This document shows, piece after piece, positions 2,674 to 63,096 of a stretch of DNA of 64,000 nt; the first letter of the stretch is position 1, and the number at the start of each line of letters is the position of its first letter. Position numbers and translations under genes: made by a program. The notes below the pieces were generated by a model. That model had not been told where the DNA came from. It did no database searches and saw nothing but the letters and a program-made list of their open reading frames with translations. Source of the DNA: Candidatus Woesebacteria bacterium (GTDB taxonomy: Bacteria; Patescibacteriota; Microgenomatia; Woykebacterales; 2-01-FULL-43-14); assembly GCA_020060105.1 (NCBI GenBank), contig JAGVAV010000002.1, positions 6,186 to 70,185 of the forward strand. The letters run 5' to 3'.

Positions 2674-2854
2674 GCGAGGACTTTGAGAGCTTACGCCTTC
2701 TCGCTATCTGATCACGCTTGCGAACTACTGAAGGTTTCTCATAAAACTCTCTCTTCTTTAATTCTGTAAGAATACCGTCAGATTGAACCTTTTTATTGAA
2801 TTTTCTAATCAACACTTCTATCGATTCGCCTTCTTGCGCCCGAACTACAGTCAT
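2666..2854 (-). CDS. rpsU: 30S ribosomal protein S21
   Basis: MTVVRAQEGESIEVLIRKFNKKVQSDGILTELKKREFYEKPSV...RKR matches S21. The ATG at 2854 is chosen over the longer track ORF (2932) because the N-terminal extension has no homology. Confidence 0.8.
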   Translation of the reverse strand: MTVVRAQEGESIEVLIRKFNKKVQSDGILTELKKREFYEKPSVVRKRDQIARRRKLSKSSRG

Positions 2855-2873
2855 AAATAGTAAACACCCCCTC

Positions 2874-3191
2874 TCAACGATCCCCCAGTAAATGCCAATG
2901 TAAGTGGGGGACATGTTGGTATGATCCTCCATTAATTATCAAACGATAACCCGTTTTGTCAAGACCATTCTTTATAATAAACCGCTGCATTAATTTAATC
3001 ATCCCTTCTATAATAACCATATCAGCGTCTTGAATATCTAAAAAGGTAGGAATATGCTTCTTGGGAACGACTAGAAGGTGAATTGGAGCTTGAGGATGAA
3101 GGTCGTTCAAAGCAATAATCTTCTCATCCTCATAAAGAACATCCGCCGGCACTTCTCTTTTTGCAATTTGACAAAAAATGCAATTGCTCAT
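2874..3191 (-). CDS. HIT-family (histidine triad) nucleotide hydrolase
   Basis: CIFCQI N-terminus and HLHWHLL histidine triad. Confidence 0.85.
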   Translation of the reverse strand: MSNCIFCQIAKREVPADVLYEDEKIIALNDLHPQAPIHLLVVPKKHIPTFLDIQDADMVIIEGMIKLMQRFIIKNGLDKTGYRLIINGGSYQHVPHLHWHLLGDR

Positions 3192-4092
3192 TCCTTCTCC
3201 TTTTTAAACTTTCTAAGCAGCTATACGGTATCTTAAGATAAACATTTTCTAAACCCAGTTCTTTTCCAATGCCTCCGCAGCCATGATAATCAGAGCCTCC
3301 GGTAACTATTAAATCTAAGTTTCTCGCCTGATCAGTAAAATGCGTGACACAGGTTCTTGTTTGATCATCCGACACCCGGTAAGTCAAAACTTCTAAGCCA
3401 TCCAAGCCAAACCTTTTTAACTTTTTTAAGTAAAAATCTTGATTAAAAACTAAACTCTCGTTCTCCACTGTTACTAAATCCCAAGCAGGATGAGCCAAAA
3501 CAGCCACTCCTCCTAATGAATGGATTGTTTCTATCGCTTCCTTTACATCAAAACCTTCTTTGGTAACGTAAGCAACCCCATCCTTCGTAAGGTAACGACC
3601 AATAAAATTCCCTACACTCGGAACTAGCCCAAAATCTGCAACTAGCTTGACCTCGTTACTTTTGTTTCTGATAACCGCCTCGGCAATGTGAGGTAAAACA
3701 ATTGATCCAAAGGCTAAGCCTCGAACCTCCTCGTAATCTATCTGAAAACCGCAAGAATTTAAATTTTTAATTATTGCCTTCGCTCTTTCTTCCCTCTTCC
3801 ACTGGAAATATCTTAATTTTTTCTGAAAAGAAGCCTTATGATAATCCAAATAGTAACCTAAAATGTGAAATTCCTTTTCCTGGTCATAGCAAGAAAATTC
3901 ACATCCTGGAACCACCTCAAGACCAACCCTTTCTCCTTCTTTTAATCCCACGTCCAAACTATCTACGCTATCATGATCGGTTATTCCCAAAGCTTTTAAA
4001 TTAGCTTCTTTGGCTTTTTTTATCAGCTCAACAACACTCAAACCGCCATCAGAGGCAATCGTGTGTGTATGCAAATCAATATATTCTTCCAC
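3130..4092 (-). CDS. PHP-domain metal-dependent phosphoesterase (TrpH/YciV-like)
   Basis: DLHTHTIASDG N-terminal PHP motif and HPAWD... motifs. The 3' end overlaps the HIT gene by 62 nt. Confidence 0.8.
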   Translation of the reverse strand: MEEYIDLHTHTIASDGGLSVVELIKKAKEANLKALGITDHDSVDSLDVGLKEGERVGLEVVPGCEFSCYDQEKEFHILGYYLDYHKASFQKKLRYFQWKREERAKAIIKNLNSCGFQIDYEEVRGLAFGSIVLPHIAEAVIRNKSNEVKLVADFGLVPSVGNFIGRYLTKDGVAYVTKEGFDVKEAIETIHSLGGVAVLAHPAWDLVTVENESLVFNQDFYLKKLKRFGLDGLEVLTYRVSDDQTRTCVTHFTDQARNLDLIVTGGSDYHGCGGIGKELGLENVYLKIPYSCLESLKRRRNEQLHFLSNCKKRSAGGCSL

Positions 4093-5439: not shown

Positions 5440-6546
5440 TCACTTAAAAGGGATAAGTTGGGTAACTTTTTCGCCCAATGAGGTATTTAACCATAACCAA
5501 ATTATGTCTTGGTAGGTAATGAGAATAATTAAAAAGAGTAAAAACACCATACCAAAGGTGTGAACCCATTTTTCAAGCTTTAAGGGGACTTTCCTTCGGG
5601 TAATAAGCTCTGCGGTAATAAAAAGCAAACGACCGCCATCTAACGCAGGTAGCGGTAAGATATTAATAATTGCCAAATTTAGGCTTAGTAGGCCTAACAA
5701 CATTAACACGTTAACAAAACCCGATTTTGTCGCTAAGTGGGTAAAGTAAGCAATTCTCCCCAACCCCCCAACCTCTTCGGGAACTTCCTTTTCCACGAAC
5801 AGATCCCTCAACATCGTTCTTAAAGAGTCAACCATCAAACCAGTCGCTCTTAAAGCCTGATTAAAACCTACTACCGGAGCTTCCCAGATAGGAAACGACT
5901 TAGTAGCCACGTATGGATAAATCTCAATCCCCATCGATCCTTGACCCTGAGGTGGGTTTTCTCGGGGAGTAACTTTCAGGACTTCAAGCCTCCCCTCGCG
6001 TTCTACACTAACGGCAATCTCACTCCCAGCAAGTTTATCTGTTTTGTCACGTAAGTCCTCTGGGCCCCCTAACTCAACGCCGTTAATAGCCGTTATCACA
6101 TCCCCTTCCTTCAAACCAGAACTAAGCGCCGGGGAATCCTTAGCTACTTTCCCAATCAAAACTTTATCCGTCGGTAAGGGGCCGCCGATCACGTAAACAA
6201 CGGTTAAAACAGCTACCGCTAAGATAAAGTTCATTAGCACTCCCGCCGTAACCATGACGGCTCTTTTCCAAGGAGCTTGGGAAATAAAATTTCGAGGGTC
6301 CTTTGACGGTTCCTCTGAATCCTCTCCCGTTAATCGCACAAAGCCGCCTATCGGCAAGGCATTAACTGTGTACTCCGTCTCGCCTTTCTTTTTTCCCCAT
6401 ATCTTCGGCGGCAACCCGAATCCAAATTCTTCAACTTTGACCCCGAAAAACTTAGCCGATAGAAAATGGCCCAACTCGTGGATAAAAATTAACACTCCTA
6501 AAATTAAGACGAAGTTTAATCCGGTGTAAAGATACTCTGGGTTCAT
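5440..6546 (-). CDS. rseP: RseP-type site-2 protease (M50, with PDZ domain)
   Basis: HELGHF HExxH motif in the first TM, a PDZ segment, and LDGG motif. Conserved position next to proS. Confidence 0.88.
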   Translation of the reverse strand: MNPEYLYTGLNFVLILGVLIFIHELGHFLSAKFFGVKVEEFGFGLPPKIWGKKKGETEYTVNALPIGGFVRLTGEDSEEPSKDPRNFISQAPWKRAVMVTAGVLMNFILAVAVLTVVYVIGGPLPTDKVLIGKVAKDSPALSSGLKEGDVITAINGVELGGPEDLRDKTDKLAGSEIAVSVEREGRLEVLKVTPRENPPQGQGSMGIEIYPYVATKSFPIWEAPVVGFNQALRATGLMVDSLRTMLRDLFVEKEVPEEVGGLGRIAYFTHLATKSGFVNVLMLLGLLSLNLAIINILPLPALDGGRLLFITAELITRRKVPLKLEKWVHTFGMVFLLFLIILITYQDIIWLWLNTSLGEKVTQLIPFK

Positions 6547-6594
6547 AAAATTCCTGCTTAACCCTTAAAAACCTGAGAAAAACACTTTTTACGC

Positions 6595-7152
6595 TTATAA
6601 TTCCGCTAACTCTTTTTCTTTACTCTTACTAATTTCTTCCATTTCTTTCACTACTTTGTCAGTTAACACTTGAACTTTTTCCTCACCACGCCTCTTCTCG
6701 TCCTCAGAGATATCGTCATTTTTCTCTAACTGGTTAATTTTTTCGACTGCCTCTCTCCTAATTTGCCTCGCTGCTATCCGATGTTCCTCAATTTTTCCTC
6801 TAACTAATTTCACCATCTCTTTCCGCCTTTCCTCAGTTAAAGGAGGAAGGGGTATTCTGATAAAGTCGCCTTCCTTGATTGGATTTAGTCCAAAACCTGC
6901 TTGTTGAATAGCCTTAAGAATTTGAGGGGTGTTGCCCGCGTCCCAAGGCTGAACTGTCAGTAACCTCGGTTCTGGCGCAGAAATTGTGGCTAAATCTCTT
7001 AAGTTCATTAGTGAACCGTAAGCTTCTACCGGGGTATCTTCAATTAATGAAGGAGCGGCTCTACCTGTTCTAACTCTGGCTAGATCTGCCTTAAGATCCT
7101 GCAATGTTTTATCCATTTTTTTCTCAGCTTCGTTAAGTACCTGATTTACCAT
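6595..7152 (-). CDS. frr: Ribosome recycling factor
   Basis: RRF family sequence. The start is taken at the MVNQVLNEAEKKM ATG (7152), immediately after the tsf stop, rather than the longer track ORF. Confidence 0.85.
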   Translation of the reverse strand: MVNQVLNEAEKKMDKTLQDLKADLARVRTGRAAPSLIEDTPVEAYGSLMNLRDLATISAPEPRLLTVQPWDAGNTPQILKAIQQAGFGLNPIKEGDFIRIPLPPLTEERRKEMVKLVRGKIEEHRIAARQIRREAVEKINQLEKNDDISEDEKRRGEEKVQVLTDKVVKEMEEISKSKEKELAEL

Positions 7153-7615: not shown

Positions 7616-8336
7616 TTTTCCCCTCCATTTCCGGCTTTGTTGATTTCTTTTCGTAAATAGCCCTTCCTTCATTAAAAGATTCAGCAATTGCCTTAACTAG
7701 AGTGTTAATTGATTTCAATGCATCGTCGTTAGCAGGTATCGGATAAGTTACTACTGTCGGGTCACTATTTGTATCAACAACGGCGACTGTGGGAACACCT
7801 GTCTTATTCGCTTCTCTTACCGCATTCTCCTCCCTTTTTGCGTCCACGATAAACAAAGCGTCCGGTAATTTATTCAATTCTCTAATTCCACCCACGAAAT
7901 CATTCAACTTCTCAATTTCTTTATCAATTAAGAGTTGTTCCTTTTTAGTATACTTCCCAAGCTCGCCCGACTTTTTCTTCTCCTCCAACTCGTTTAGCCG
8001 TTTGATAGTTCTTTGGACAAACTCAAAATTAGTCAAAAGGCCACCGGGCCAACGCTTTATAATAAACATGGCCCCAACCCTTTCCGCTTCCTGTTTAACA
8101 ATATCTTGGGCTTGTTTTTTTGTTCCCACAAAAACAACAACCCCACCTTTAGACGCTAAACTTTTTACAAATTCGTAAGCCGCTTCTAACCGTTGAACCG
8201 TTTGAGCTAAGTCAACGACATGGACACCACCACGCTGGGTAAAAATAAACGGTTTCATCTTGGGATTCCATCTCTTTGCCTGATGGCCAAAATGAACACC
8301 GGCTTCTAAAAGCTCTCTCATCGTTGGTAAACTCAT
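7608..8336 (-). CDS. rpsB: 30S ribosomal protein S2
   Basis: MSLPTMRELLEAGVHFGHQAKRWNPKM is the S2 N-terminus. A GGGAGG Shine-Dalgarno precedes the ATG at 8336. Confidence 0.92.
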   Translation of the reverse strand: MSLPTMRELLEAGVHFGHQAKRWNPKMKPFIFTQRGGVHVVDLAQTVQRLEAAYEFVKSLASKGGVVVFVGTKKQAQDIVKQEAERVGAMFIIKRWPGGLLTNFEFVQRTIKRLNELEEKKKSGELGKYTKKEQLLIDKEIEKLNDFVGGIRELNKLPDALFIVDAKREENAVREANKTGVPTVAVVDTNSDPTVVTYPIPANDDALKSINTLVKAIAESFNEGRAIYEKKSTKPEMEGKNE

Positions 8337-11218: not shown

Positions 11219-12304
11219 TTATCTATTAATCACAAACATCATGTTACCTAAGTTTTTCACCTTACCTTTTATTTCCATCAAAGTCAAGGTCGAATTCACA
11301 ACATCCGTAGGTAATTTTGTCTCTTTAATCACCTGGTCTATCGTCTTAGCCCCGGAGGAAAGAATCTTTAAAATCGAGTCTTCCTCTGCGTTTTCTGGAA
11401 GAATAGAATCAGATTTGGAGTCTTTTACCGTTATATTCATTTCATCTATTATATCTTCTACACTAGTAACCAACTTCGCTCCGGCTTTAATCAAATCCGC
11501 TGGTCCTTTGGAAAGTTTGCTAAAGATAGGGCCTGGAACAGCGAAAACTTCCCGATTTTGATCAAGAGCTAAATTGGCTGTAATCAAAGAGCCGCTATCT
11601 TCCCCAGCTTCTGTTACCACCACCCCTCTTGATAAACCCGAAATGATCCTATTTCTCGCTGGAAAATTGCCAGCTAGTGGTTCAAAATTCGGAGGGAACT
11701 CTGATAGCAACACGCCGCCTCTAGCTATCTCTTCCGCTAGGGAATGGTTTTCTGGGGGATATATCCTGTTTAAACCACTGCCAAGGACGGCCAAGGTTCT
11801 TCCTCCACATTCGAGAGCTGTCTGGTGGGCTAACGAATCTACACCTCTTGCCAAGCCAGAAACTATAGTAAATCCATATCCCACTAACTCTTTTACTAAA
11901 TATCTGGTTACCTCTTTCCCATACACCGTGGCTTTCCTTGTGCCAACAACGGCTATTGCCAGATCATCTTCCGGTTTAATCTCACCTTTCAAAAAAATTA
12001 CAGGTGGAGGATCATAGATTTCCAGTAGTAAGCGGGGATAATCTTTATCCACGACTGTTATCACTTTAATACCCTGACTGATAATGCCTTCCAAATATCT
12101 ATCTGGTTCAATACTATTTCTATAGCGATCAAAGACCCAAGAAGCTTTTTCCCCAATCACTTTTGCCACATCCTCAATTCTAGCTTTCCAAACTAACTCC
12201 GGCGACTTGAAATAATCAATCAGTTCCTTAAAGCGAACTGGCCCAATTTGAGGCGCCCCGCTGAGGGCCACCCAAAAAGCAAGACTGTTAAAATTATTTG
12301 ACAT
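11219..12304 (-). CDS. dprA: DNA-processing protein DprA (Smf)
   Basis: Rossmann-like DprA core: GTRKATVYG...GLARGVDSLAHQ... Confidence 0.88.
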   Translation of the reverse strand: MSNNFNSLAFWVALSGAPQIGPVRFKELIDYFKSPELVWKARIEDVAKVIGEKASWVFDRYRNSIEPDRYLEGIISQGIKVITVVDKDYPRLLLEIYDPPPVIFLKGEIKPEDDLAIAVVGTRKATVYGKEVTRYLVKELVGYGFTIVSGLARGVDSLAHQTALECGGRTLAVLGSGLNRIYPPENHSLAEEIARGGVLLSEFPPNFEPLAGNFPARNRIISGLSRGVVVTEAGEDSGSLITANLALDQNREVFAVPGPIFSKLSKGPADLIKAGAKLVTSVEDIIDEMNITVKDSKSDSILPENAEEDSILKILSSGAKTIDQVIKETKLPTDVVNSTLTLMEIKGKVKNLGNMMFVINR

Positions 12305-14228
12305 TGAAATAATACTCCAAGATTTTTCTCGCTACAGGCGCGGCTACGCTTGAGCCTTCCCCACCGTTCTCAATAAAAACTGTAACCACAATTTCAGGCT
12401 CTTCATAGGGAGCAAAAACCGTAAACCACGCGTGAGGATCACTGCTCTCTCCTGTTTCCGCCGTTCCCGTCTTTCCGGCCACAGGAACTTTAAAATCAAA
12501 AAAGGGCCAAGCTGTTCCTCCAGAGACAACCGCTTCCCTCAACCCTTCCTTTAGAGTAGTCAAAGAATTGACGCTAACAAAATTCTCTCTGATTACTTCT
12601 GACCTAATTTTTTTAATCAAAGTCGGCTTTATAAGCTTGCCGCCATTAGCAACCACGCCCATCATTGCATTAACCTGCAGTGGAGTCGCCGTTAGGTCAC
12701 CTTGTCCAATTGACATGTTAATAGTGTTTCCCGGATACCACGGCTCCTTCAGTGTTTTTAACTTCCACTCCTCGTTGGGCACTAACCCTGAAGATTCCCC
12801 CAGCAAATCAACCCCCAGCTTCTCACCAAAACCAAAGAGACGAGCGAAATTTTCCAATGCCTTCTCCCCTATCCTTTCTCCAAGATGATAAAAAAAAGTA
12901 TCGTTTGAACGAGCGAGAGCCCTTACCACATCAATAAAGCCCTCCTTTTTCCCGTATTGAGTGTAGTACCAGTTTGTAAACCGATACTCTCCTAAAAAGA
13001 ATTCGCCGGTATCTTCTATCTTTGTCTCTTTAGATATTTTACCATTTTCTAATCCAGCCGCCGCCGTAACAACCTTAAAAGTGGAGCCAGGAGGATACGC
13101 GGCAGATACGGCTCTGTTTAGCATCGGTTTGTTTTTGTCATTCATTAATAAGTCATAGTCATCCCAGGAAATACCTTTTGCGAAGAGGTTATTATCATAA
13201 CTAGGTAAACTTATCATGCCTAATATCTCGCCAGTTTTAGGATTCTGAGCTACAACCACTCCCGCGCTAGACTTTACCTCTAACAGCTTATCCCGAAGAG
13301 CTTTTTCCATTTCCTTCTGCAGATCCAAATCTAAACTAAGTATCAGGTCCTCACCCGGAATTGGAGACACACTGGCTAAGACACCCGTTTTTTTCCCGTT
13401 TGCATCCACTTTAATTATTTCCTGGCCAGAAACTCCTCTAAGTATTTGCTCAAATGTCTTTTCAATTCCACTTACCCCCACCTTATCACCCGGACGGTAA
13501 TTAAAATGTTTGCTATTTGATAATTCCTCCTTGGAAATTTCACCAGTAAAACCAATAACGTGGGAAAGCAAGCTACCAAAGTTGTATTGGCGAACAGGAT
13601 CCACTTCTAAAGATACTCCCTTTAGCTCTCCTTCCATAGCTTCTATCTTTAACGCCACATCCCTGTTCACGCCGTCTTTAATAGTAAAGACTTCGTTACC
13701 AACGCTTTCAACCTTTTCTTTGACTTCCTCCTCACTTAATTCGAGTAATAAAGAAAGTTTGTTTGACAACGAAATTTTTTCTTCCATTGTTAGTGCAGAG
13801 CCGTCTAGGACAACGCGAAAAGCAGGAATATTACTGGCAAGCACATTGCCGTTACGATCGTAAACAACACCCCGAGGGGCATGGATTACCCGTGTTAGGG
13901 AGCGATTACCTTCCGAGGCACTAAGAAAGTTATGACCTTCAATAACTTGAAGCTGAACTAACCTGCTTGTTAAGAAAAAAATCGCGGTGAAGGTAAACAG
14001 ATATAAAGGTAGAATTCGCCAAACAGAGACTTTAAATTCCGGTTTAGAACCCCTAAGGTTACCCACAATAAAAACTTCTTGCCAAGAAGTAGAAAACCGA
14101 TCTTTCTCAGAGAAAAAACGGCGTCTAGACCGGTCAAATCGAACAACCATGTCAAAAAAAGCCTTGCCTAAAAAGGCTGGTTTTCTTCTAGCGTCTTTTC
14201 TAAAAATCCCCAGGTTTTTTTTCTCCAT
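12294..14228 (-). CDS. mrdA: Penicillin-binding protein 2 (elongasome transpeptidase)
   Basis: N-terminal TM and PBP dimerisation domain, STFK active-site motif, and position immediately downstream of mreBCD. Confidence 0.9.
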   Translation of the reverse strand: MEKKNLGIFRKDARRKPAFLGKAFFDMVVRFDRSRRRFFSEKDRFSTSWQEVFIVGNLRGSKPEFKVSVWRILPLYLFTFTAIFFLTSRLVQLQVIEGHNFLSASEGNRSLTRVIHAPRGVVYDRNGNVLASNIPAFRVVLDGSALTMEEKISLSNKLSLLLELSEEEVKEKVESVGNEVFTIKDGVNRDVALKIEAMEGELKGVSLEVDPVRQYNFGSLLSHVIGFTGEISKEELSNSKHFNYRPGDKVGVSGIEKTFEQILRGVSGQEIIKVDANGKKTGVLASVSPIPGEDLILSLDLDLQKEMEKALRDKLLEVKSSAGVVVAQNPKTGEILGMISLPSYDNNLFAKGISWDDYDLLMNDKNKPMLNRAVSAAYPPGSTFKVVTAAAGLENGKISKETKIEDTGEFFLGEYRFTNWYYTQYGKKEGFIDVVRALARSNDTFFYHLGERIGEKALENFARLFGFGEKLGVDLLGESSGLVPNEEWKLKTLKEPWYPGNTINMSIGQGDLTATPLQVNAMMGVVANGGKLIKPTLIKKIRSEVIRENFVSVNSLTTLKEGLREAVVSGGTAWPFFDFKVPVAGKTGTAETGESSDPHAWFTVFAPYEEPEIVVTVFIENGGEGSSVAAPVARKILEYYFNVK

Positions 14229-14229
14229 A

Positions 14230-14574
14230 TTATCGCCAAGCCATCAAAATCGTTAATTCTATCACCTTACTAGAAATAAACAAGCAAGCGATTAACAAAA
14301 TTAAAATAAAGGCTCTTCTCTTATTTAACCCAGTTTTGTTAAAAAAATAAAACACACTAAAGGCCACTAAATAACCCAGCAAGGATGTCCCTAGGGGAAA
14401 ATTAGTTAACAAATCCGTTATAAGACTTCCCACCACACCGAAATACACAGCGTCTTTAACTTGGCTTAGACTAAACCAGTATAATGAAATAATCACTATT
14501 AAATTAAGCGGAGCAATTGAAAGCTGTATCAGAGTAACGACAAACGCTGTGGTAAAAATCAACAAGTATTTCAT
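14230..14574 (-). CDS. mreD: Rod shape-determining protein MreD (small polytopic membrane protein)
   Basis: 114-aa hydrophobic protein between mreC and mrdA. Assigned by position and membrane topology only. Confidence 0.65.
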   Translation of the reverse strand: MKYLLIFTTAFVVTLIQLSIAPLNLIVIISLYWFSLSQVKDAVYFGVVGSLITDLLTNFPLGTSLLGYLVAFSVFYFFNKTGLNKRRAFILILLIACLFISSKVIELTILMAWR

Positions 14575-15365
14575 TTGAAAATAAAAACGTGGCTAAGGCG
14601 ACTATAATTAACCAAGGGTCTGACTACGGCTTCTTGAAAAATAGCCTTATCATCTTTCTTAACTTTCTCCACGGTTCCAACAACCAAACCACGAGGATAA
14701 CCACCCTCACCAGAAGTGATTACACTATCGCCTTCGGTTAAAGGTTCTTCCGGAAGAACCTTAGATAAAGACATCTCAGCTTGAAAACGCCCAGTTAGAA
14801 TTCCTCTAGCCTTTTGAACAGTAGTCACAGGAACTTTAGAATTTGGATCGATTAATAGCTCTATACTAGCCGATCTCGGTGAGGTACTAATTACCTTCCC
14901 TATCAAAATATCTCTTAATATCACAAAAGAGTCTCTTCTCACCCCTTCGTTTTCCCCCTTATCTACCAATAAATACCTCTCTTGTCCTATGGGGCCAAAA
15001 CCAATTACAGACGCCAGAATCATCTCCTTACTCGCGTTTTCTAGATTACCTATCCCTAATTGTTCTTTCAAAACTTTGTTTTCTTCAGTCAGCAACTTCA
15101 ACCGAGTAACTTCTGATACCAAATCCACATTCTCTTTCTTTAATTTAGAATTTTCCTCATGTAAGTTAACCGCGTCAAAAACAACTCCAAGCTTTGATGT
15201 TACCCCTTGGCTAAAACTGTAAAAACCATACTGCACTGGAACTAATACCGCTTGTAGAGGGTTCTTAATAAAACCTAAACCGTTCTGCCGGTCAAGAAAA
15301 ACTAGCAGAAGGACAAACAAAAAACCGACAACAAAATAGAACCTCCTCACCGTGCCCCTCCGCAA
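14571..15365 (-). CDS. mreC: Rod shape-determining protein MreC
   Basis: N-terminal TM, coiled coil (ENSKLKKENVDLVSEVTRLKLL), and a beta-rich C-terminal domain. Confidence 0.85.
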   Translation of the reverse strand: MRRGTVRRFYFVVGFLFVLLLVFLDRQNGLGFIKNPLQAVLVPVQYGFYSFSQGVTSKLGVVFDAVNLHEENSKLKKENVDLVSEVTRLKLLTEENKVLKEQLGIGNLENASKEMILASVIGFGPIGQERYLLVDKGENEGVRRDSFVILRDILIGKVISTSPRSASIELLIDPNSKVPVTTVQKARGILTGRFQAEMSLSKVLPEEPLTEGDSVITSGEGGYPRGLVVGTVEKVKKDDKAIFQEAVVRPLVNYSRLSHVFIFK

Positions 15366-16399
15366 ATCTTGATTCTTCTCAACAGAGATGCATTCTCCAA
15401 AACCTTACCCGCACCTCTCACAACGCAAGTTAAAGCATCCTCCGCCACTATCACAGGCATCTTGGTTTCTTTAGCCGTTAACTCTGCTACCCCTGGTAAA
15501 AGAGACCCACCGCCGGCCAAAGTAATCCCATTTTCCATAATATCCGAAACCAACTCGGGAGGAGTCTCTTCCAGAGTATCTTTTATTGCTTCGATAACTA
15601 CTCTCACTGTGTTAGACAAAGCCTCTCTTATTTCACCACTCGTCACTACAACGCTTGAAGGCAAACCAGAAGCCAAGTCTCGGCCTCGAATAGCAATTTT
15701 ACTTTCTTTATCCACTGGATAGGCAGAACCAATGCTTATTTTTATTTCTTCCGCTGTCCTCTCCCCCAGCAAAAGATTGTACCTGCTTCTCGCATAATTA
15801 ATAATGTCTTGATCCATTTCATCTCCCGCAACCCTAACCGAACGATTAATAACTATTCCCCCTAATGAGATTACGGCAATCTCTGTCGTCCCCCCACCAA
15901 TATCGACAATCATACTTCCTTTAGCCTCTTCAGTTGGAAGTCCGGCGCCAATGGCCGCGGCCATTGGCTCCTCAACTAAATACGCCTCTCGAGCCCCCGC
16001 TCTTATGGTGGCATCTTGTACTGCCCTTCTTTCAACTTCGGTTACTCCTGAGGGAATCCCAACCACTACTCTTGGACGAGGAATTTTAGGAATAATTGAA
16101 CGGCTCTCGTGGATTTTACTAACAAAATATTTAAGTAAAGATTCTGTTGCGTCAAAATCAGAAATTACCCCGTCTCTTAAAGGCCTTATCACGCTAATCA
16201 TGCTCGGTGTTTTCCCAATCATCCTTTTAGCCTCAGCACCCACCGCTAAAACCTGTCTCGTTTTTTTGTGTTGGGCAATTATCGTCGGTTCGCGTATTAG
16301 AATCCCCTTCCCTTTGACTAAAACTAAAGTATTCGCTGTTCCGAGATCAATCCCAACATCGTGAGACAAAGAAGATAAGAAACTATTAATAAAAAACAT
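15347..16399 (-). CDS. mreB: Rod shape-determining actin homolog MreB
   Basis: [11 protein letters not shown] phosphate-1 motif and the actin/HSP70 fold motifs throughout. Confidence 0.92.
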   Translation of the reverse strand: MFFINSFLSSLSHDVGIDLGTANTLVLVKGKGILIREPTIIAQHKKTRQVLAVGAEAKRMIGKTPSMISVIRPLRDGVISDFDATESLLKYFVSKIHESRSIIPKIPRPRVVVGIPSGVTEVERRAVQDATIRAGAREAYLVEEPMAAAIGAGLPTEEAKGSMIVDIGGGTTEIAVISLGGIVINRSVRVAGDEMDQDIINYARSRYNLLLGERTAEEIKISIGSAYPVDKESKIAIRGRDLASGLPSSVVVTSGEIREALSNTVRVVIEAIKDTLEETPPELVSDIMENGITLAGGGSLLPGVAELTAKETKMPVIVAEDALTCVVRGAGKVLENASLLRRIKICGGAR

Positions 16400-16478
16400 A
16401 AACCACCTTCTACGCTAAAAGTTTAACATTACCAATCTTCTTTCCGCAAGCACGGCTTTTGTGTTAAGATAAGTATTA

Positions 16479-18722
16479 ATGACAAGTTTAGTTTTTTTGT
16501 GTAACAAAATTATTGAATACAGTTTCTACGCCCTTTTCTTCCTCGTTCCTTTAATTTTTTCTCATCTAACCTATGAATTATTTGAATTCAATAAGATGCT
16601 TCTTGTCTACTTCATTTCTATCATCATAGCCGGCGCGTGGTTAATTAAGTCACTCGAAACGGAAACATTTTATTTAAAAAGAACTTTTCTAGATATTCCA
16701 ATTCTTTTGTTTCTAATAGCTAACATTCTTTCTACTATATTTTCGATTGACCCTTACACCAGCCTTTGGGGTTACTACACTCGGTTCAACGGAGGTCTAA
16801 TTTCAACAATTTTCTATATTTTCCTCTATTACGCCTTTGTAAGTAACATTAAACCTAGTAAAGTATTAAAGATGATCTATGTTTCCGTGATCTCAGCGGC
16901 TGTAGTGTCGTTTTGGGGAGCACTAGCCTTTTTTGGGCGCGACCCGTCTTGTCTGTTAATTAACGGCGATTTTGGAACAAGTTGCTGGAATAAGCTTTTC
17001 AATCCCACGGTAAGAGCCTTTTCAACTATTGGACAATTCAATTGGTTAGCCGCATTTATCGCAATGATTCTACCTATTAGCGTATCTTTGATGATAATTT
17101 CTCAACCATTTTACAAAAAGATCCGTTATCTATCAGTTAGTTCTCTTATGTACCTTACCTTCACCCTGGCATACTCGAGAGGAGCAACGATCGGCCTAGC
17201 GGCAGGATTGCTTGTCTTTTTCTTACTTGCCGGCCTAGATAAAGTAAGAAAATATTGGAAAGGATTAATTGCTTCAGGAACAGTTGGATCAGCAGCAAGT
17301 TATTTTATCTTTACCTCTGTTTTCCTTAAGAACTCTTTTGATTGGGTATGGTTATCTGCTTTACTGATTATTGGGGCAGTGGGTGGTTTGTTTATCTTTG
17401 TTTTCTTCAACGCTTTATCCGTCCTAAAAGGAAATCGAAAGTGGCTTATCGTTTTGGCAATCGCCTTCCTTATCATCAATGTCCTTGCCAGCAACGCCTT
17501 CTCTCATAGACCCGTAAAAGTCAGTAATGTGACAACCGAAAGTGTTGGAACTGGTGGGGAGACAGACTCTGGACAAAATAGATTGGTTGTTTGGAAAGGA
17601 GCCTTAGACATTGCTAAAAACTTCCCTATCCTGGGCTCAGGGGTAGAGACTTTCGCCTACTCTTATTACCAATTTAGACCAGAAGAACATAACTTAGCTG
17701 GATCAGAATGGGATGTTTTATTTAATAAAGCCCACAACGAATACTTGAACTACCTTTCCACAACGGGGATCGTTGGGGTAATTACGTATTTAGCCCTTAT
17801 AATAATGTTTTATATCGCCACAATAAAACTATTCCTTAAAGAAAGTTCTGGAAGTAACAAGTTGATAATCGCAGCTTTTTTATCGGGCTATACTAGCTAC
17901 TTAGTTCAGAACACATTTAGCTTCTCTGTTGTACCAATCGCTTTGTTGTTTTATCTTTTTCCTGCCTTAATCATTAACCTGAGTGGAAATAAAAAAGACC
18001 AGAATAACCCACAACTTCAAATAAACATTAAACTTTTACCGGGTTCAATCCGCGCTCTTTATAGAAGAAGGGTGTTTCAGGTTACTATAGCTGTTATTAT
18101 TGTGTACGCCCTCCTTAAGATTGTTAACATTTGGCAAGCAGACGTTTCTTATGCAAAAGGTGTTCGACAGGGAGATTACCTCTCATTAGAAAGAGCGGTA
18201 AATTTAAACCCAGCAGAGCCAACTTATCGAATCGGATTAAGTTATCTACTGGCAGTAATGGCCAACAAAGAAGAAGACCCCCAGAAAAAGAAAGAGTTAG
18301 TTTTACGGACTGTAAATGAGGGAGAAAACGCCGTAAAAGCCAGCCCTCATAACGTAAGTCTCTGGAGAAATTTGGTAAGAACTTATTACGAGCTCTCCCA
18401 AATCGACAGCAGCTTTCTAAATAACGCTCTTGAAGCAGCGCTAAAAGCCGTCTCCCTGGCCCCAACTGATGCCAGAACACACCTCACCTTAGGCTTAGCT
18501 TATAAAGAAGCGAATTTATTAAACGAAGCTGCCCAAACTTTTCAAAAGACTATTGAGCTTAAGGCCGATTTCGCGGAAGCTTATTACCATCTTGCCTTAA
18601 CCTATCAACAACAAGAAGAAAAAGAAAAGGCAGTTAAGGTTCTGGAAAAATTTCTTAATTTATTCCCAGGTCAAAAAGAAAGCGTAAACAAGTTAATAGA
18701 AGAAATAAAAGGATCTAAATAA
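16479..18722 (+). CDS. O-antigen ligase-like (Wzy_C) polytopic membrane protein with a C-terminal TPR repeat domain
   Basis: More than 10 TM helices with a periplasmic loop carrying the KAHNEYLNYL Wzy_C motif. The C-terminal roughly 200 aa are TPR-like (YYHLALTYQQQEE...). Confidence 0.75.
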   Translation: MTSLVFLCNKIIEYSFYALFFLVPLIFSHLTYELFEFNKMLLVYFISIIIAGAWLIKSLETETFYLKRTFLDIPILLFLIANILSTIFSIDPYTSLWGYYTRFNGGLISTIFYIFLYYAFVSNIKPSKVLKMIYVSVISAAVVSFWGALAFFGRDPSCLLINGDFGTSCWNKLFNPTVRAFSTIGQFNWLAAFIAMILPISVSLMIISQPFYKKIRYLSVSSLMYLTFTLAYSRGATIGLAAGLLVFFLLAGLDKVRKYWKGLIASGTVGSAASYFIFTSVFLKNSFDWVWLSALLIIGAVGGLFIFVFFNALSVLKGNRKWLIVLAIAFLIINVLASNAFSHRPVKVSNVTTESVGTGGETDSGQNRLVVWKGALDIAKNFPILGSGVETFAYSYYQFRPEEHNLAGSEWDVLFNKAHNEYLNYLSTTGIVGVITYLALIIMFYIATIKLFLKESSGSNKLIIAAFLSGYTSYLVQNTFSFSVVPIALLFYLFPALIINLSGNKKDQNNPQLQINIKLLPGSIRALYRRRVFQVTIAVIIVYALLKIVNIWQADVSYAKGVRQGDYLSLERAVNLNPAEPTYRIGLSYLLAVMANKEEDPQKKKELVLRTVNEGENAVKASPHNVSLWRNLVRTYYELSQIDSSFLNNALEAALKAVSLAPTDARTHLTLGLAYKEANLLNEAAQTFQKTIELKADFAEAYYHLALTYQQQEEKEKAVKVLEKFLNLFPGQKESVNKLIEEIKGSK

Positions 18723-49838: not shown

Positions 49839-50984
49839 TTAGCCGAGAAACCTTCTTAAAGCCCAACCAAGGGGCGCTAAACCTGTTAATAAAAGCGTTG
49901 GAATACTTTCCGGACCGGCTTTTGGCAATTCTTTCACGACAACTTTTTCTACTTCCACTGGTTTTACGACAACTTTCTCTACAGGTTTTTCGACGACTTT
50001 CTCGACTACTTTTTCCACAGGCTTCTCAATTACTTTTTCGACTACTTTCACCCCCTGCGGCACTACGGCAACTACCTGAACTGCACTAATCTTCCACTCA
50101 GGGTGTTCGTCAGCCTTCATCCAAGCAACATTTTCTAGTATCTCACCATTCTTAACGTCGTCTTTAATCCTAACCCTAAACCTAATAACCCAATCTTTAT
50201 CCTGAAGAAGGTTCCCTAGATTCACCCCGTCTCTAAGCCAATCATCGGTAATGTTAATTGTTTCACCGTCACGAGTAGCCGTTGTCGAGCCGGAAATATA
50301 ATCTACTCTAAGAGGCTCACTACTATTTGAACGATCAAGATTTGGAAGGTAGTTGGCAACGTAGACGTGGTTTAAAGGAACATTACTCATGTTGCTAATC
50401 TTGATCGTATATTCCAACTCCTCTCCAGGTCTAACCGAACTCCTGTCGGCATAGGTAAATAGAGCCACAACTACTTTAGGAACTCTTACTTTAGTCGCCG
50501 CTACAGAACGCTCCCAATTAGGTAATTCATCAGTCTTCGCGTTTATAATCACCTGAACAAACTCCCCATCGGTCATATCGTTGTTCACTGTCGCCTCAAA
50601 AGTAATCGTTAAGGTCATCCCCGCAGCAAAAATTCCAAAGTTGTTTTCTTCACCCACCCAAGCTTCTGGTAAGGAATGAGTTACGTTATCAGTACTTCGA
50701 ACATATTGCCCCGAACCAGCAACATAAGTCGCACCTACCCACTGAGGAGAAACCTTCAAACTATTCATGGCAACTCCTCCCGTATTAGTAATTCTTGCGG
50801 TGTAGGTCAGTGTCTCACCCAAGTTGGCCCAACCTTTGTCAACCGTGTTTTCAACTGTAAAGGCAGGAGATGATTCAGCTTCAGTCAGGGACGAGGAAAC
50901 AAGGTTACTTCCGATAAACAGACTGCTAAAAGCCAAAACTACACTTAGAGATTTTGCAATTAATTTGTTAATCTTTTCTAACAT
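49839..50984 (-). CDS. Secreted cell-surface protein with DUF11-like repeat domains, a (VEKx)n stalk, and a C-terminal sorting signal (LPKAG, hydrophobic segment, RRFLG)
   Basis: Signal peptide, repeated ...TYT.RITNTGG... modules, and a tripartite C-terminal signal typical of sortase or exosortase substrates. Confidence 0.6.
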   Translation of the reverse strand: MLEKINKLIAKSLSVVLAFSSLFIGSNLVSSSLTEAESSPAFTVENTVDKGWANLGETLTYTARITNTGGVAMNSLKVSPQWVGATYVAGSGQYVRSTDNVTHSLPEAWVGEENNFGIFAAGMTLTITFEATVNNDMTDGEFVQVIINAKTDELPNWERSVAATKVRVPKVVVALFTYADRSSVRPGEELEYTIKISNMSNVPLNHVYVANYLPNLDRSNSSEPLRVDYISGSTTATRDGETINITDDWLRDGVNLGNLLQDKDWVIRFRVRIKDDVKNGEILENVAWMKADEHPEWKISAVQVVAVVPQGVKVVEKVIEKPVEKVVEKVVEKPVEKVVVKPVEVEKVVVKELPKAGPESIPTLLLTGLAPLGWALRRFLG

Positions 50985-51117
50985 TTTTCACCTCCTTTCA
51001 GGCTCAGTTTAATAAAACACTGGTCGCTTTAGAGTCAAGCAAAATGGTTAAATAAACAAATTATGCAATAAGTTATTTACTTAACTATTTTAGTAACAAG
51101 TTGACAAGAAAGGAGGG

Positions 51118-51143
51118 AGAATGCTTACATTCAGCAAGCATTC
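51118..51143 (-). terminator. Hairpin terminator downstream of the Pro-rich protein gene
   Basis: GAATGCTT...AAGCATTC stem, followed on the minus strand by a U/C-rich tract. Confidence 0.4.
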
Positions 51144-51173
51144 CCCTCTATTGACATCTCTCCTGTAACTTTA

Positions 51174-52745
51174 CTAAGGCAGAGGTGTGTTAGTTGGCCC
51201 GGGCACCGCTGTAGGCGGTGGTGGTGGCGGTACTCCAGGTGTAGGCGGAGGAACCGTCGGTTGGGCTGTTGCTACCTCTGTCGGCGACGGATTAGGAACC
51301 ACAGGCGTTTTCACCACCTTCGTCGGAGTGCGATTATCGCCTGGATTTCTCGGCGTTGGCGACGGTGGTGCAGTAGGGGTGTTTGTTGGCGCCGCCGGTA
51401 TTGGAGTGTGTGTTGGCGTCGGCACTCCCGGAGGCACCGGCGTCGGTGTAGCCGTTGGCCCCACTGGAGGCACCGGTGTCGGTGTTGGCCCCACTGGCGG
51501 CACCGGCGTGGAAGTTGGCGCGGCCGGAGGCGGCGGGGGCGGAGGTGGAGCAGTAGTTACATTGAAAAACTCCAACTGCTCGACCAATCCGGGTTTTAGG
51601 ACCGCCAGTTGGCGGGTTCCTTTAAGAACCGCCCGAAATCGCCCGGCGCCTAATTGGTTAACATCCTCGCTAACTTCGACCACAACCGAGGAACGGCCCT
51701 CGGCAAACCACTCCCGAGGAGCTTCAAAGATTACTTCCCCAGCGTCGCCCGTGACAACGAAGCGATCAAACCCAAGATCGGGGTCCACCGTCCTGATCCT
51801 AAATTGCCAACCGCTTCGTTGGACAAATTTTTGAACTCCATCCGGCGTTTCGTCAATGAACTTAGTCACTTTCAGAAACGCTTTCTCGACGGGGATGAGT
51901 AGGTTAACGCAATTCCCGTCCAGAAAAAACACTTGTCCGTTCTTGAGAGTCACCTTTACGCCGGACACCCCAATGAACGGTCTGCTTCCCGAAGCAACAC
52001 TTCCGTCACTTCGAACGAAGTTTGTCTGGAAGGAACCGCTAAGGGAAACGTCATCAACCTGAAGGATGTCCGTCGGGCTGACGAGGATCCCTTGACGACC
52101 TAAGCCACTCGCCACGGCCAAACTTCGATTGGCATAAGTCCGACTGTCGACCCCACCCTGGACGATGTCATCACCCCTCCTCTGAGGAGGCGGAGCCTCC
52201 AACGCCGCTAACTTTTGGTCAATGACGTAAGGTTCGCCTAAGACGAACCGGGTCCCCGGAGAATAGTCGGGATGGTAACCCTTGGCTGTAAACTCCACAA
52301 AACCCATCCCCGGGGGAACCTCAATCTCGTAGCGACCCCCAAGGATAGTTGTGGTGTACTGTTTCGGCGGTTGGACTGTCCCAACCGGGGCAATCCGGAC
52401 AGTTACTTCCCCATAAGGAATCCGGATTCCCTCCTCATCCACCACCTCCCCCCGAATCCTCACCTTGTCAGGGATTTTAGTTGGGGTCAGGGTCGGGGTC
52501 GGGGTAGTGGTACTCGTTGCGGTGAGGGTAGGAGTTGGAGGAACAACCGCTGTCGCGGTTGCCTCCGCCGGTCCCGTTCTCGTAAAGGGGTTGGCCCAAA
52601 ACCACCCCGCTAAAAAAAGGACGATCACTGCGACGGACAATAAGATGTTTCGACCACCTCGCCAGGTTCGCACGGCTCTCTCCTTTCTCTTTAAACTGTT
52701 AGGTACTTTCTCTCCCCTTTCCGAGGAAACCTTGTATCGGAACAA
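51174..52745 (-). CDS. Hypothetical membrane-anchored secreted protein with Pro/Thr-rich linkers and a carboxypeptidase-regulatory-like beta-sandwich. Markedly GC-rich.
   Basis: TTG start and an N-terminal TM. PTPTPVPPVG repeats. GC content is well above the roughly 40% background across the whole ORF. Confidence 0.6.
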   Translation of the reverse strand: MFRYKVSSERGEKVPNSLKRKERAVRTWRGGRNILLSVAVIVLFLAGWFWANPFTRTGPAEATATAVVPPTPTLTATSTTTPTPTLTPTKIPDKVRIRGEVVDEEGIRIPYGEVTVRIAPVGTVQPPKQYTTTILGGRYEIEVPPGMGFVEFTAKGYHPDYSPGTRFVLGEPYVIDQKLAALEAPPPQRRGDDIVQGGVDSRTYANRSLAVASGLGRQGILVSPTDILQVDDVSLSGSFQTNFVRSDGSVASGSRPFIGVSGVKVTLKNGQVFFLDGNCVNLLIPVEKAFLKVTKFIDETPDGVQKFVQRSGWQFRIRTVDPDLGFDRFVVTGDAGEVIFEAPREWFAEGRSSVVVEVSEDVNQLGAGRFRAVLKGTRQLAVLKPGLVEQLEFFNVTTAPPPPPPPPAAPTSTPVPPVGPTPTPVPPVGPTATPTPVPPGVPTPTHTPIPAAPTNTPTAPPSPTPRNPGDNRTPTKVVKTPVVPNPSPTEVATAQPTVPPPTPGVPPPPPPTAVPGPTNTPLP

Positions 52746-52825: not shown

Positions 52826-52859
52826 ACAAAAACAAAAAAAGGCGGTTCATACCCGCCTT
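52826..52859 (-). terminator. Strong rho-independent terminator on the minus strand
   Basis: AAGGCGG-GTATGAA-CCGCCTT followed by UUUUUUUGUUUUUG in minus-strand orientation. Confidence 0.75.
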
Positions 52860-53007
52860 CTTATTTAGATCGAAACGTGCCAGTTCGAAAGTGATTTAAA
52901 CATCTATTTCTTAGCACCCAGTAAGAGTGTTACCCCAAACCAGATGCTAGGAAATAGACACTTTGCTTCCCTTTCTAGCACGAACTGTAAGCAATATATC
53001 ATACTTT

Positions 53008-53170
53008 TGTTATAATGTCAACTAGATGTAATGTTATACTAATACATCCGTCTTGATTTTTTATTAGTTTTCTGCTTATATAAACACAATAGGTACACCT
53101 GCTGTCCAGATGTACTTACAGCACCGCCATCGGCGTCCTTCTTCACTGGCCATGGTGGTGCTTCTTTTTA
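53008..53170 (+). ncRNA. Candidate small plus-strand transcript of about 150 nt (extended -10 promoter to intrinsic terminator). It may encode a 20-aa hydrophobic-tailed peptide.
   Basis: TGTTATAAT at 53008..53016. Terminator GCACCGCCAT...ATGGTGGTGC followed by TTCTTTTTA at 53121..53170. Small ORF MYLQHRHRRPSSLAMVVLLFI. Confidence 0.3.
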
Positions 53171-53385
53171 TCTAAATCCATTTATCCCAAGCGTCAACTA
53201 AATTTCGACTATCTTAGCATAAGGTCAATCGTTTGTCAAGTTTGTAAATCCTATAGCCATTGTCGACCCAAAAAATGTAGAAACCTATAATTATTTTAGC
53301 TTCAATTTTCGCCCTTTTATTAATTGTGGATAACTTGGGGAAATGTTTAACGGGAATAAAAACTTTCTTACAAGATGGGAAAAAA

Positions 53386-54276
53386 CTACCTAATTTGGAC
53401 AAAAATCATTCGTCCAGCAACTGTTTGCAGAACACGAGAGACTACTGTTTCGACCGTTTGACCAACGTACTTTGAACCGTTTTCCACGACAATCATCGTC
53501 CCGTCTGGCAAATAACCTACCCCCTGATCTTTTTCCTTACCCTCTTGAATAACCTTAACCGTCATCGTCTCCCCGGGTAAAACAACTGTCTTGACGGCAT
53601 TAGCCAGTTCGTTAACATTCAAGATTTTTACCCCGGAAATGGTCGCCACTTTATTTAGGTTGTAGTCTGTCGTAATAATCTTACCCTTTAAGCTTTTCGC
53701 AAGCCTTAAAAGTTTATCATCCGTGTCCTTAGTTTTTTGAATATCTTGATTAATGATCTCCACCTTTACGTTTTCTGACTTCTTCAAGACCTCCAGAACC
53801 TCAAAACCTCTTCGCCCCCGACCTCTTTTTAACTCGTCGCTCGAGTCAGCAATGTGCTGAAGTTCTGATAGAACAAACCGCGGGACAATTAAGGTCCCAC
53901 CTAGAAAACCCGTTGAGACAATGTCTGAAAGGCGACCATCGATAATTGCGCTGGTATCTAAAATCATAGGGTTATGGTACTTTCCGTTATTTCTTTTCGG
54001 AAGCATGACTCTTTTTCCTACATTAGGCAGATGAACCTGAGTAATCACTTCCGTGGCAACCTTCTTCGCTAGGTTTGTAGACCAATTCGCCACAGCCATT
54101 GAAACAATAGGAACCAAAAATACCCCAGCCACGCCAAAGATAATCGTCAACAAAATGTAAACCACGTAAGGCGTATCGAAAAGGTTTACTTGCGGAAGAA
54201 CTTGAGTTGAAAGTAAGTAACCTAAAAAGGCAAAAACCACACCCAAAACAGTTCGAACAACAACTTGAACAAGCAT
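53386..54276 (-). CDS. Membrane-anchored PIN/TRAM-domain protein (YacL-like)
   Basis: Two N-terminal TMs, a PIN domain (ILDTSAIIDGR), and a C-terminal TRAM domain. It follows radA, as in the Firmicute clpC-radA-(disA)-yacL arrangement. Confidence 0.8.
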   Translation of the reverse strand: MLVQVVVRTVLGVVFAFLGYLLSTQVLPQVNLFDTPYVVYILLTIIFGVAGVFLVPIVSMAVANWSTNLAKKVATEVITQVHLPNVGKRVMLPKRNNGKYHNPMILDTSAIIDGRLSDIVSTGFLGGTLIVPRFVLSELQHIADSSDELKRGRGRRGFEVLEVLKKSENVKVEIINQDIQKTKDTDDKLLRLAKSLKGKIITTDYNLNKVATISGVKILNVNELANAVKTVVLPGETMTVKVIQEGKEKDQGVGYLPDGTMIVVENGSKYVGQTVETVVSRVLQTVAGRMIFVQIR

Positions 54277-59464: not shown

Positions 59465-63010
<3,546 letters not shown>

Positions 63011-63096
63011 GCTATATTTGGCCTTCACCTTCTATTCAGTTTCTAGAGTGTTAATGAAACTAAATAAGATATTAAATTTTCAAAGAGCGAAAACTT

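Follow-up and report, generated by a model that had tools for sequence, protein, structure and literature searches.

The window examined here is a stretch of 64,000 nucleotides from a Candidatus Woesebacteria bacterium (GenBank assembly GCA_020060105.1, contig JAGVAV010000002.1, forward-strand positions 6,186 to 70,185). Its minus strand carries a gene for a membrane-anchored, proline- and threonine-rich protein whose G+C content (GC) stands well above that of its neighbours. The gene sits in a locus with the order radA, yacL, two small RNAs (E1 and E2), the gene itself, a gene for a DUF11/CLIPPER-type surface protein, rho, and a LysM-M23 gene. We refer to its position as the slot and to the gene as the slot gene; lineages in which the locus was compared carry locus numbers (L001 and so on). 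A preliminary description of the sequence regarded the gene as a recent import. Comparison with relatives points instead to a clade-wide surface-protein locus whose alleles are probably exchanged as cassettes and are GC-rich as a pool.

The slot gene probably begins at the GTG codon at 52673, judging from the Shine-Dalgarno sequence in front of it and the agreement with the product deposited at NCBI. The TTG at 52745, which opens the longest open reading frame (ORF) and had been taken as the start, is less likely. The N-terminal membrane anchor of the preliminary description is recovered as a helix by AlphaFold2 (AF2). The carboxypeptidase-regulatory-like beta-sandwich is confirmed too, with a match to PF13620 just over the gathering cut-off (32.8 versus 32.3 bits, E 9.3e-8, profile positions 2-81 of 82); the precomputed annotation of the deposited product lists this family as well. 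Pfam has no family for the central domain, and neither SpaA nor SdrD_B matches the window protein. A profile search of the sequences in the PDB gave no significant match to any part of it, including the central region. The C-terminal domain was modelled by AF2 from a 3-sequence alignment with a predicted local distance difference test score (pLDDT) of 75-90. Its top Foldseek matches in the PDB are GBS52, UafA, PitA and SpaC, all of them weak (E 4e-4 to 1e-2) and obtained with a medium-confidence model. From the single sequence, the AF2 model was poor beyond the first domain (pLDDT 45).

Proline repeats had been reported at both ends of the protein. A tandem array of the PVPPVG type exists (30-bp unit x 2.2, at 51454-51519), within the C-terminal tail only; the N-terminal linker is a different, short proline-threonine stretch. 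The terminal tail motif ...PNPSPT...GPTNTPLP is kept between the window protein and that of L001. The window protein ends ...AVPGPTNTPLP and has neither an LPXTG-type sorting signal nor a C-terminal hydrophobic segment, so it is no classical sortase substrate. Given the anchor, the proline/threonine richness and the predicted beta-sandwich domains, it is reasonable to regard it, as the preliminary description did, as an adhesin-like surface protein. The slot gene is a good candidate for a host- or substrate-contact protein of the Woykebacteria-like Patescibacteria. The features of the locus are collected in Table 1.

Table 1. Features of the slot locus (window coordinates; HMM, hidden Markov model; CDS, coding sequence; TM, transmembrane)
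Feature	Position	Strand	Basis and remarks
Slot gene CDS, 499 aa, GTG start (probable)	51174..52673	-	Product at NCBI (P0001); stop codon 51174-51176
Shine-Dalgarno sequence AAGGAG, 6 nt 5' of the GTG start	52680..52685	-	Sequence reading
Signal-anchor / TM helix, residues ~10-27, ILLSVAVIVLFLAGWFWA	52593..52646	-	Hydrophobic stretch; AF2 helix residues 6-27
N-terminal Pro/Thr/Ala-rich linker, residues ~31-66	52476..52583	-	Translation; 6-bp repeat at 52483-52505
CarboxypepD_reg (transthyretin-like) beta-sandwich, residues 73-155	52209..52457	-	Pfam PF13620; AF2 all-beta, pLDDT ~80
Central slot-family domain, ~85 aa, residues 178-262	51888..52142	-	Iterated HMM; motif C-x-N-x2-3-[IV]-P at its end
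C-terminal beta-sandwich, residues ~263-372	51558..51887	-	HMM; AF2; CnaB/SpaA-like by fold
C-terminal Pro/Thr-rich tail, ~125 aa, residues ~374-499	51177..51554	-	Translation
Intrinsic terminator of the slot gene	51116..51146	-	13-bp stem, then T-rich tail
E2 structured small RNA, long hairpin with invariant apical part ...CUGGUUUGGGGUAACACUCUUACUGG...	52892..52969	-	Covariance model
E2 promoter-like site, TTGACA-17-TATATT, 11/12, TG-extended	52993..53021	-	Conserved in L001
Intrinsic terminator 3' of E2	52836..52862	-	Equivalent terminator in L001
E1 structured small RNA, covarying stem and near-invariant hairpin GUACAUCUGGACAGCAGGUGUAC, U-rich tail	53082..53169	-	Comparison
E1 promoter-like site	53211-53239	-	5' of E1
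yacL (TM + PIN + TRAM), conserved upstream anchor	53386..54276	-	Pfam PIN/TRAM; used to find syntenic loci
DUF11/CLIPPER-type surface protein gene, conserved downstream anchor	49839..50984	-	Pfam; native GC at third codon positions

The slot-gene ORF at 51174..52745 (-) was confirmed. Its GC is 0.573, with 0.62, 0.54 and 0.557 at the first, second and third codon positions (GC1, GC2 and GC3). The remaining 47 long ORFs of the window have a GC of 0.34-0.45 and a GC3 of 0.23-0.455; beyond the slot gene, GC-rich ORFs are confined to spurious ones within the rRNA operon. GC3 was expressed as a z score conditioned on the gene's own amino-acid composition and the codon usage of the window. By this measure the slot gene has 284 G/C-ending codons against 186 expected (z = 9.0), and background genes of the window range from -3.9 to +3.4. 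The deviation persists when proline and glycine codons are masked (z = 8.5), and also when threonine and alanine codons are masked with them (z = 8.3). With GC3 at 0.51-0.60 in all its segments, the gene is GC-rich over its full length, as had been described. Its codon adaptation index (CAI; reference nusG and rplKAJL) is 0.547 versus 0.667 +/- 0.025 elsewhere, the minimum of the window (z -4.7), so the codon usage is discordant as well. Expression-linked codon bias is ruled out by this lowest CAI together with the low GC3 of the ribosomal-protein genes.

In a maximum-likelihood change-point analysis, the GC-rich tract begins 10 nt ahead of the GTG codon and ends 4 nt short of the last nucleotide of the stop codon. 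The tract follows the ORF in all loci to which the analysis was applied. Amino-acid usage is shifted too: the arginine share R/(R+K) is 0.65 in the window slot protein, 0.37 in the other proteins and, in spite of the native GC3 there, 0.63 in the L001 homologue. At third positions the largest enrichment is that of G and the largest depletion that of T. These base spectra fit neither simple single-strand deamination nor an adenine-specific pattern of the kind left by diversity-generating retroelements (DGRs). The 3:1 dinucleotide signature of slot genes correlates with the native one at r 0.66-0.69, like that of genes from unrelated phyla, and native subsets reach 0.93-0.95; a DUF11 control is off as well, at 0.75, so this signature does not tell foreign genes from native genes of unusual make-up. 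The DUF11 neighbour evolves fast, yet has a native GC3 (0.385), so evolutionary speed alone is no explanation for the shift.

Word-indexed searching recovered nothing but the query, whether it started from the protein core or from a 3-sequence profile. An exhaustive phmmer search, covering 1.84 billion representatives, added three proteins. The first (599 aa, 36% identity) is the slot protein of L001, and the second (482 aa, 53% identity), that of L081, matches in the C-terminal domain only. Both are encoded between yacL and the DUF11 gene, followed by rho and LysM-M23, and have native GC3. The third is an unrelated CarboxypepD_reg repeat protein and the sole match outside the slot; among the 1.84 billion representatives no slot-family relative occurs elsewhere. 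Neither the hairpin RNA motif nor the window protein was found on viral contigs. The slot proteins of the window and of L001, its nearest relative, are 35% identical over 327 aa (E 1e-41); their housekeeping neighbours are 62-82% identical and the DUF11 proteins 43%. A scan of a metagenome collection with the 22-nt core of a conserved hairpin yielded nine contigs, all with the same syntenic locus. Wherever enough downstream DNA was available, the gene about 300 nt past the hairpin had a GC of 0.50-0.66 between flanks of 0.37-0.45, and native composition resumed at the DUF11 gene. Searching with YacL identified the clade, Candidatus Woykebacteria and its relatives, and produced long contigs. 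Seven further loci that include a slot gene were obtained in this way; an eighth (L100) stops short of it. One of the loci, L096, lies on a complete 915-kb chromosome.

A surface-protein gene is present in the slot of all 16 lineages compared, the window included. In 14 of the 16 it is strongly GC3-shifted relative to its own neighbours (z 5-21): L094 (20.9), L002 (19.7), L093 (15.7), L087 (12.6), L095 (11.7), L098 (10.6), the window (9.0), L091 (8.8), L096 (8.2), L092 (7.7), L097 (7.0), L099 (6.4), L085 (5.4) and L090 (5.3). The two without a shift are L001 (1.9) and L081 (-2.0). The GC anomaly is a long-lived property of the allele pool of this locus. Since the excess is common to 14 of 16 lineages, it cannot date an import into the window genome. 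The claim of a recent import fails on this recurrence, on the presence of the gene in every lineage and on the lack of any family member outside the slot. There is a real horizontal element, but it consists of exchange within a clade-specific allele pool and not of the acquisition of a foreign gene.

Full-length BLAST comparison reveals little similarity among most slot proteins. An HMM iterated from the central region of the window protein recognises its domain in eight of them (window, L001, L092, L093, L094, L095, L098 and L099), with E-values of 1e-13 to 1e-35 within the set. The closing motif C-x-N-x2-3-[IV]-P was recognised by eye in the remaining ones. All slot proteins have a common plan of N-terminal anchor, beta-sandwich modules and proline/threonine spacers. 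Several match Pfam CarboxypepD_reg, SdrD_B or SpaA, with SdrD_B/SpaA in L094 and L097. Every lineage with sequence at this position has a slot gene. Those of L001 and six other lineages are linked to the window gene by the central domain; for L081, homology is confined to the C-terminal domain. Sequence comparison indicates that the slot genes are a clade-restricted family at a fixed position and not a set of unrelated foreign genes. At 47-50% identity, the C-terminal domain links the window and L001 to L081, the most distant lineage, and is missing from intermediate ones, a distribution that points to mosaic alleles.

The C-termini of the slot proteins fall into a few conserved classes on otherwise different alleles. 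The window and L001 end in ...GPTNTPLP, and L096 in the similar ...GPTPLP. L093 and L094 end in ...DPDDGYGGP(V/A), to which ...NSGYGGPG in L099 is similar. A third class, ...PTQV..W, is found in L087 and L095, and L092 ends ...PTPIW. These conserved termini may be a processing or sorting signal, or a 3' recombination flank.

A pair of close relatives, L087 and L095, gives a direct view of how slot alleles are replaced. Between the two, YacL, Rho, M23 and DUF11 are conserved at 90.6-92.1% protein identity (DUF11, 90.6%), and the similarity of their slot proteins is confined to the final 51 aa. At the DNA level, collinear identity of 82-87% ends about 70 nt 5' of the start codon and restarts about 270 nt before the stop. 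Between these points, 1.3-1.4 kb of slot-gene body is unalignable (L087, oriented, 2030-3331; L095, 6051-7472). The common 3' 270 nt encodes the tail ...PPPCCPD...PQPTQDRPDPP.PTQV..W. Both alleles are GC-rich. An unalignable body next to a DUF11 protein at 90.6% identity is beyond point substitution, so the body has been replaced via the conserved flanks; the mosaic distribution of the C-terminal domain points in the same direction. Exchange of the slot-gene body as a cassette is shown in this pair and is probably general. No flanking direct or inverted repeats were found around the slot gene of the window. No tRNA adjoins it, and its neighbours are housekeeping genes with no mobility genes among them.

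We favour, with a probability of about 0.62, the reading that the window gene belongs, as one allele, to a hypervariable surface-protein locus found across the clade, whose alleles are exchanged as cassettes and form a GC-rich pool. The body of the slot gene would be swapped by homologous recombination in conserved flanks. The flanks would be the RNA and 5' region upstream and, downstream, the 3' proline/threonine tail and the DUF11 gene. Such swapping would yield deeply divergent, partly mosaic alleles between lineages. Variation of this type is the pattern expected of a surface or attachment protein under diversifying selection.

Why the pool should be GC-rich is a separate matter. Recombination-associated GC enrichment at a recombination hot spot is a tentative answer, to which we give somewhat less than even odds. 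The enrichment could come about by GC-biased gene conversion (gBGC) among related alleles or by more effective selection for G/C. Either process would counter the AT-biased mutation that sets the composition of the rest of the genome. The native-GC alleles of L001 and L081 might then be copies out of that regime which decayed at synonymous sites. A positive relation between recombination and GC has been reported for most bacterial species, and gBGC versus selection is debated as its cause (PMC11879095). Recombination-associated GC enrichment is attributed to Lassalle et al. 2015 (PMC4450053) and Bobay & Ochman 2017, as cited in PMC11879095. As in those reports, a recombining locus is richer in G/C, especially at third positions, than its AT-biased genome. 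Unlike the published effects, which are modest genome-wide correlations, the slot presents a single gene shifted by 0.15-0.39 in GC3 with sharp ORF boundaries. Should the excess prove to be recombination-driven, the slot would offer the debate between gBGC and selection in bacteria an unusually clean natural experiment on a single gene.

Several points weigh against the reading of an exchanged, recombination-enriched allele pool. The GC3 shift of +0.15 to +0.39 is far above the recombination-GC effects described in bacteria. The conserved flanks are not GC-rich, though conversion would be expected to spill over into them, and conversion needs heteroduplex between similar alleles. The amino-acid usage is of GC type too, as R/(R+K) indicates, a shift that any long-acting GC pressure could leave, a stay in a GC-rich donor among them. 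The dinucleotide signature departs from the native one, as does that of the DUF11 control. Cassette replacement is demonstrated in one pair of relatives only. Furthermore, the YacL nearest to that of the window is 77% identical, so replacement in the window genome itself is deduced and not seen.

Cassette exchange may instead have imported the composition of donors. In this account, which we consider unlikely, alleles arrive repeatedly from GC-richer donors and are replaced before amelioration, and the window allele is fairly recent. The donors would be unsampled GC-rich members of the clade or another lineage. Replacement does occur in L087/L095, domain mosaicism is discordant with the phylogeny, and the slot-gene dinucleotide signature is non-native. 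Members of higher GC exist in the clade, with a background GC3 of 0.50 in L099 and about 0.59 in the yacL fragment of L090. One-off GC-rich imports are known in these genomes, such as deoC in L097, and the L002 interval holds five extra GC3-rich small ORFs without a Pfam match. However, the slot GC3 of 0.72-0.77 in L002 and L094 is above any clade background seen, and an excess over neighbours is found even in the GC-richest members (L099, z 6.4; L090, z 5.3). No donor is visible: no two genomes have a closely similar allele, and the 1.84 billion representatives contain no homologue off the slot. A separate recent arrival would also be required in 14 of the 16 lineages.

Gene-specific selection on codons or mRNA is an improbable alternative. 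Here G/C-ending codons, which are rare in these genomes, or a stable GC-rich mRNA would be favoured, for the longevity of the mRNA of a major surface protein or for slowed translation during export and folding. The confinement of the window tract to the ORF within about 10 nt would suit such selection. So would the CAI, the lowest in the window, the recurrence of the shift in nearly all lineages with any allele, and the strong promoter and 125-175-nt 5' untranslated region (UTR) that the gene has of its own in L094 and L096. Non-synonymous composition is shifted too, however, and L001 and L081 manage without the shift. A GC3 move of 0.2-0.4 by synonymous selection is hard to square with the small, drift-prone populations assumed of such symbionts, and we know of no precedent for codon or mRNA selection of such size.

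It is also doubtful, slightly more so, that a dedicated diversification process acts on the slot gene only. Such a process could be gene conversion directed at the gene, or hypermutation, with an outcome biased to G/C, and E1 and E2 might take part in it. The main attachment protein of these episymbiont-type bacteria would thereby stay hypervariable, and its gene GC-rich in the face of AT-biased mutation. A DGR template/variable repeat was looked for, and no repeat of slot-gene sequence lies in the 44-60 kb part of the window. No reverse transcriptase was found among the ORFs inspected around the locus, the other window ORFs not being individually profiled. Avd is the accessory protein of DGRs. 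Genes for 23S_rRNA_IVP / bAvd-like four-helix-bundle proteins occur in the yacL-slot interval of two lineages only (L081, 8207-8572 and 1881-2234; L085, 3356-3718, which corresponds to L086 777-1139), and neither a reverse transcriptase nor a template repeat was seen near them.

A single recent import of a novel adhesin gene into the window genome from a foreign GC-rich donor is essentially excluded. It would account for the strong discordance in composition and codon usage, and the slot gene forms a transcription unit of its own, terminator included. Against it stand the homologue in the same slot of L001, the slot gene in 16 of 16 lineages, the clade-wide anomaly and the absence of the family outside the clade. 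Nor were mobility genes, a tRNA target, flanking direct repeats or viral relatives found. Chimeric assembly with a spliced fragment of a GC-rich organism, which the metagenome-derived source contig (71.7 kb) and the abrupt change in composition could suggest, is likewise essentially excluded and has still less to offer, as the boundaries are the start and stop of one ORF with a native-looking ribosome-binding site and terminator, the pattern is repeated in 14 independently assembled lineages, including the complete chromosome of L096, and alignment with L001 extends over the upstream RNAs and the 3' end.

In behaviour, the slot comes nearest to loci in which surface antigens vary by exchange through conserved flanks. 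Examples are the enterobacterial O-antigen rfb/wb* genes between galF and gnd, the pneumococcal cps locus and the central domains of flagellins. Like the O-antigen and capsule loci, the slot has a fixed position, conserved flanking genes and alleles that are unalignable between close relatives (L087/L095). Also as in those loci, the compositional anomaly is common to the alleles and hence does not date a transfer. Unlike the classic cases, which are AT-rich, the slot anomaly is GC-rich in AT-rich genomes. A lone protein gene makes up its cassette in place of a biosynthetic cluster, the gene's own 3' tail serves as one recombination flank, and the lineage belongs to an uncultured clade of the episymbiont type. 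As a protein, the product resembles Gram-positive pilins and MSCRAMM adhesins (GBS52, SpaA/SpaC, PitA, UafA, SdrD) in its string of beta-sandwiches with proline/threonine-rich spacers. It differs from them in being anchored by an N-terminal helix without LPXTG and in having a central domain with no relative in Pfam or the PDB, and the fold matches are weak (E 4e-4 at best).

A hypervariable PTD-repeat surface protein with a proposed role in attachment has been described from a Gracilibacteria (BD1-5) genome (Sieber et al. 2019, PMC6851277). Both proteins belong to bacteria of the Candidate Phyla Radiation (CPR) and have a single N-terminal TM helix, a beta/coil extracellular part, proline/threonine-rich repeats and an exceptionally variable locus. 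In the Gracilibacteria protein, nucleotides vary within a population in one repeat array and the peptide is conserved. At the slot, whole gene bodies vary between lineages and the GC3 shift is distinctive; the two proteins have no sequence relationship.

Compositional discordance is routinely read as proof of recent transfer. That inference fails at the slot, where the excess recurs in 14 of 16 lineages, and an account at the level of the locus is needed, in terms of an allele pool that recombines and has a compositional equilibrium of its own. A hypervariable, cassette-exchanged adhesin would be the obvious place for the determinants of partner specificity in the Woykebacteria-like Patescibacteria. 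Two structured small RNAs without an Rfam family and a clade-specific protein domain are new here.

The 640-bp spacer 5' of the slot gene contains two blocks that hardly differ between L001 and the window. The covariance model built for E2 matches 17 of 17 syntenic loci containing the interval (54-96 bits), always 5' of the slot gene and on the same strand; it has no match in L081, L003 or L030. In the model-fitted alignment, 95.9% of cells are paired and compensatory changes occur in 16 of 26 pairs, values attained in 0 of 500 shuffles. An independent MAFFT/RNAalifold alignment has compensatory changes in 14 of 26 pairs. E1 is about 93% identical between the window and L001 over 95 nt, is present in seven lineages and has compensatory changes in 6 of 21 pairs. 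Rfam 15 has no match for E1 or E2 at gathering score in the window and eight loci, and nothing meaningful at E <= 10 / 5. RNase P, signal recognition particle (SRP) RNA, transfer-messenger RNA (tmRNA) and 6S RNA were dropped as identities of the upstream RNAs because no model matched, and ARAGORN detected no tmRNA. E1 and E2 are two conserved structured small RNAs without an Rfam family.

The preliminary description had placed terminators on both sides of the slot gene and took them as transcriptional insulation. The hairpins exist on both sides, and the conclusion drawn from them is misleading, since the upstream terminator closes the E2 gene, which has its own near-consensus promoter, and the downstream one is the slot gene's own. 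E2 was also considered as a riboswitch-like leader of the slot gene. As a general reading this was rejected because L094 and L096 have a strong promoter between E2 and the slot gene, with a 5' UTR of 125-175 nt. The window has no consensus promoter between the E2 terminator and the slot gene, and there the gene is possibly transcribed by read-through of that terminator.

Further elements were observed in the spacer. About 150-250 nt 5' of E1, some lineages (L084, L087, L088 and L090) have an extra conserved element, absent from the window and L001, whose parts are, in order, ...AAUGGGCAGGG(A/C)..GUGGC, a CCCCGCC/GGCGGGG hairpin and GGAAUUAU. The spacer between yacL and the slot gene may contain a larger, modular RNA region. 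In L092, a second and weaker E2-like hairpin (25.6 bits; 8184-8257 (-) in its own coordinates) lies about 435 nt 3' of the main E2, directly before the GC-rich part of the slot ORF. Just 3' of yacL, a perfect DnaA-box nonamer, TTATCCACA, occurs at 53325-53333 (-) of the window in a 23-nt block conserved with L001. The 64 kb contain two perfect DnaA boxes versus 0.42 expected by chance, and there is no GC-skew switch at 53325-53333.

Downstream of the slot, the DUF11 neighbour contains a (V/P)EKVVEKP-type repeat array with 36-nt units at 49923-50048. Its C-terminus, LPKAGPE followed by a hydrophobic segment and RRFLG, resembles a non-canonical sortase-type sorting signal. In L002, the five small GC3-rich ORFs (GC3 0.55-0.68, no Pfam match) lie at 11798-14772, 5' of the RNAs. 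A GC-rich gene for a 371-aa coiled-coil/TM protein (15717-16832) stands directly before the 840-aa slot gene of this lineage, and similar genes are found in L085 and L091. The deoC gene of L097 (DeoC/LacD aldolase, 5651-6607, GC 0.536, GC3 0.59) lies between clpC and radA in that lineage only. It looks like a true one-off GC-rich import, in contrast to the slot gene. Elsewhere in the window, the 23S rRNA gene (59468-63011) contains a group I intron at 60498-60735 (-) (Rfam RF00028, 58 bits), a feature typical of CPR bacteria.

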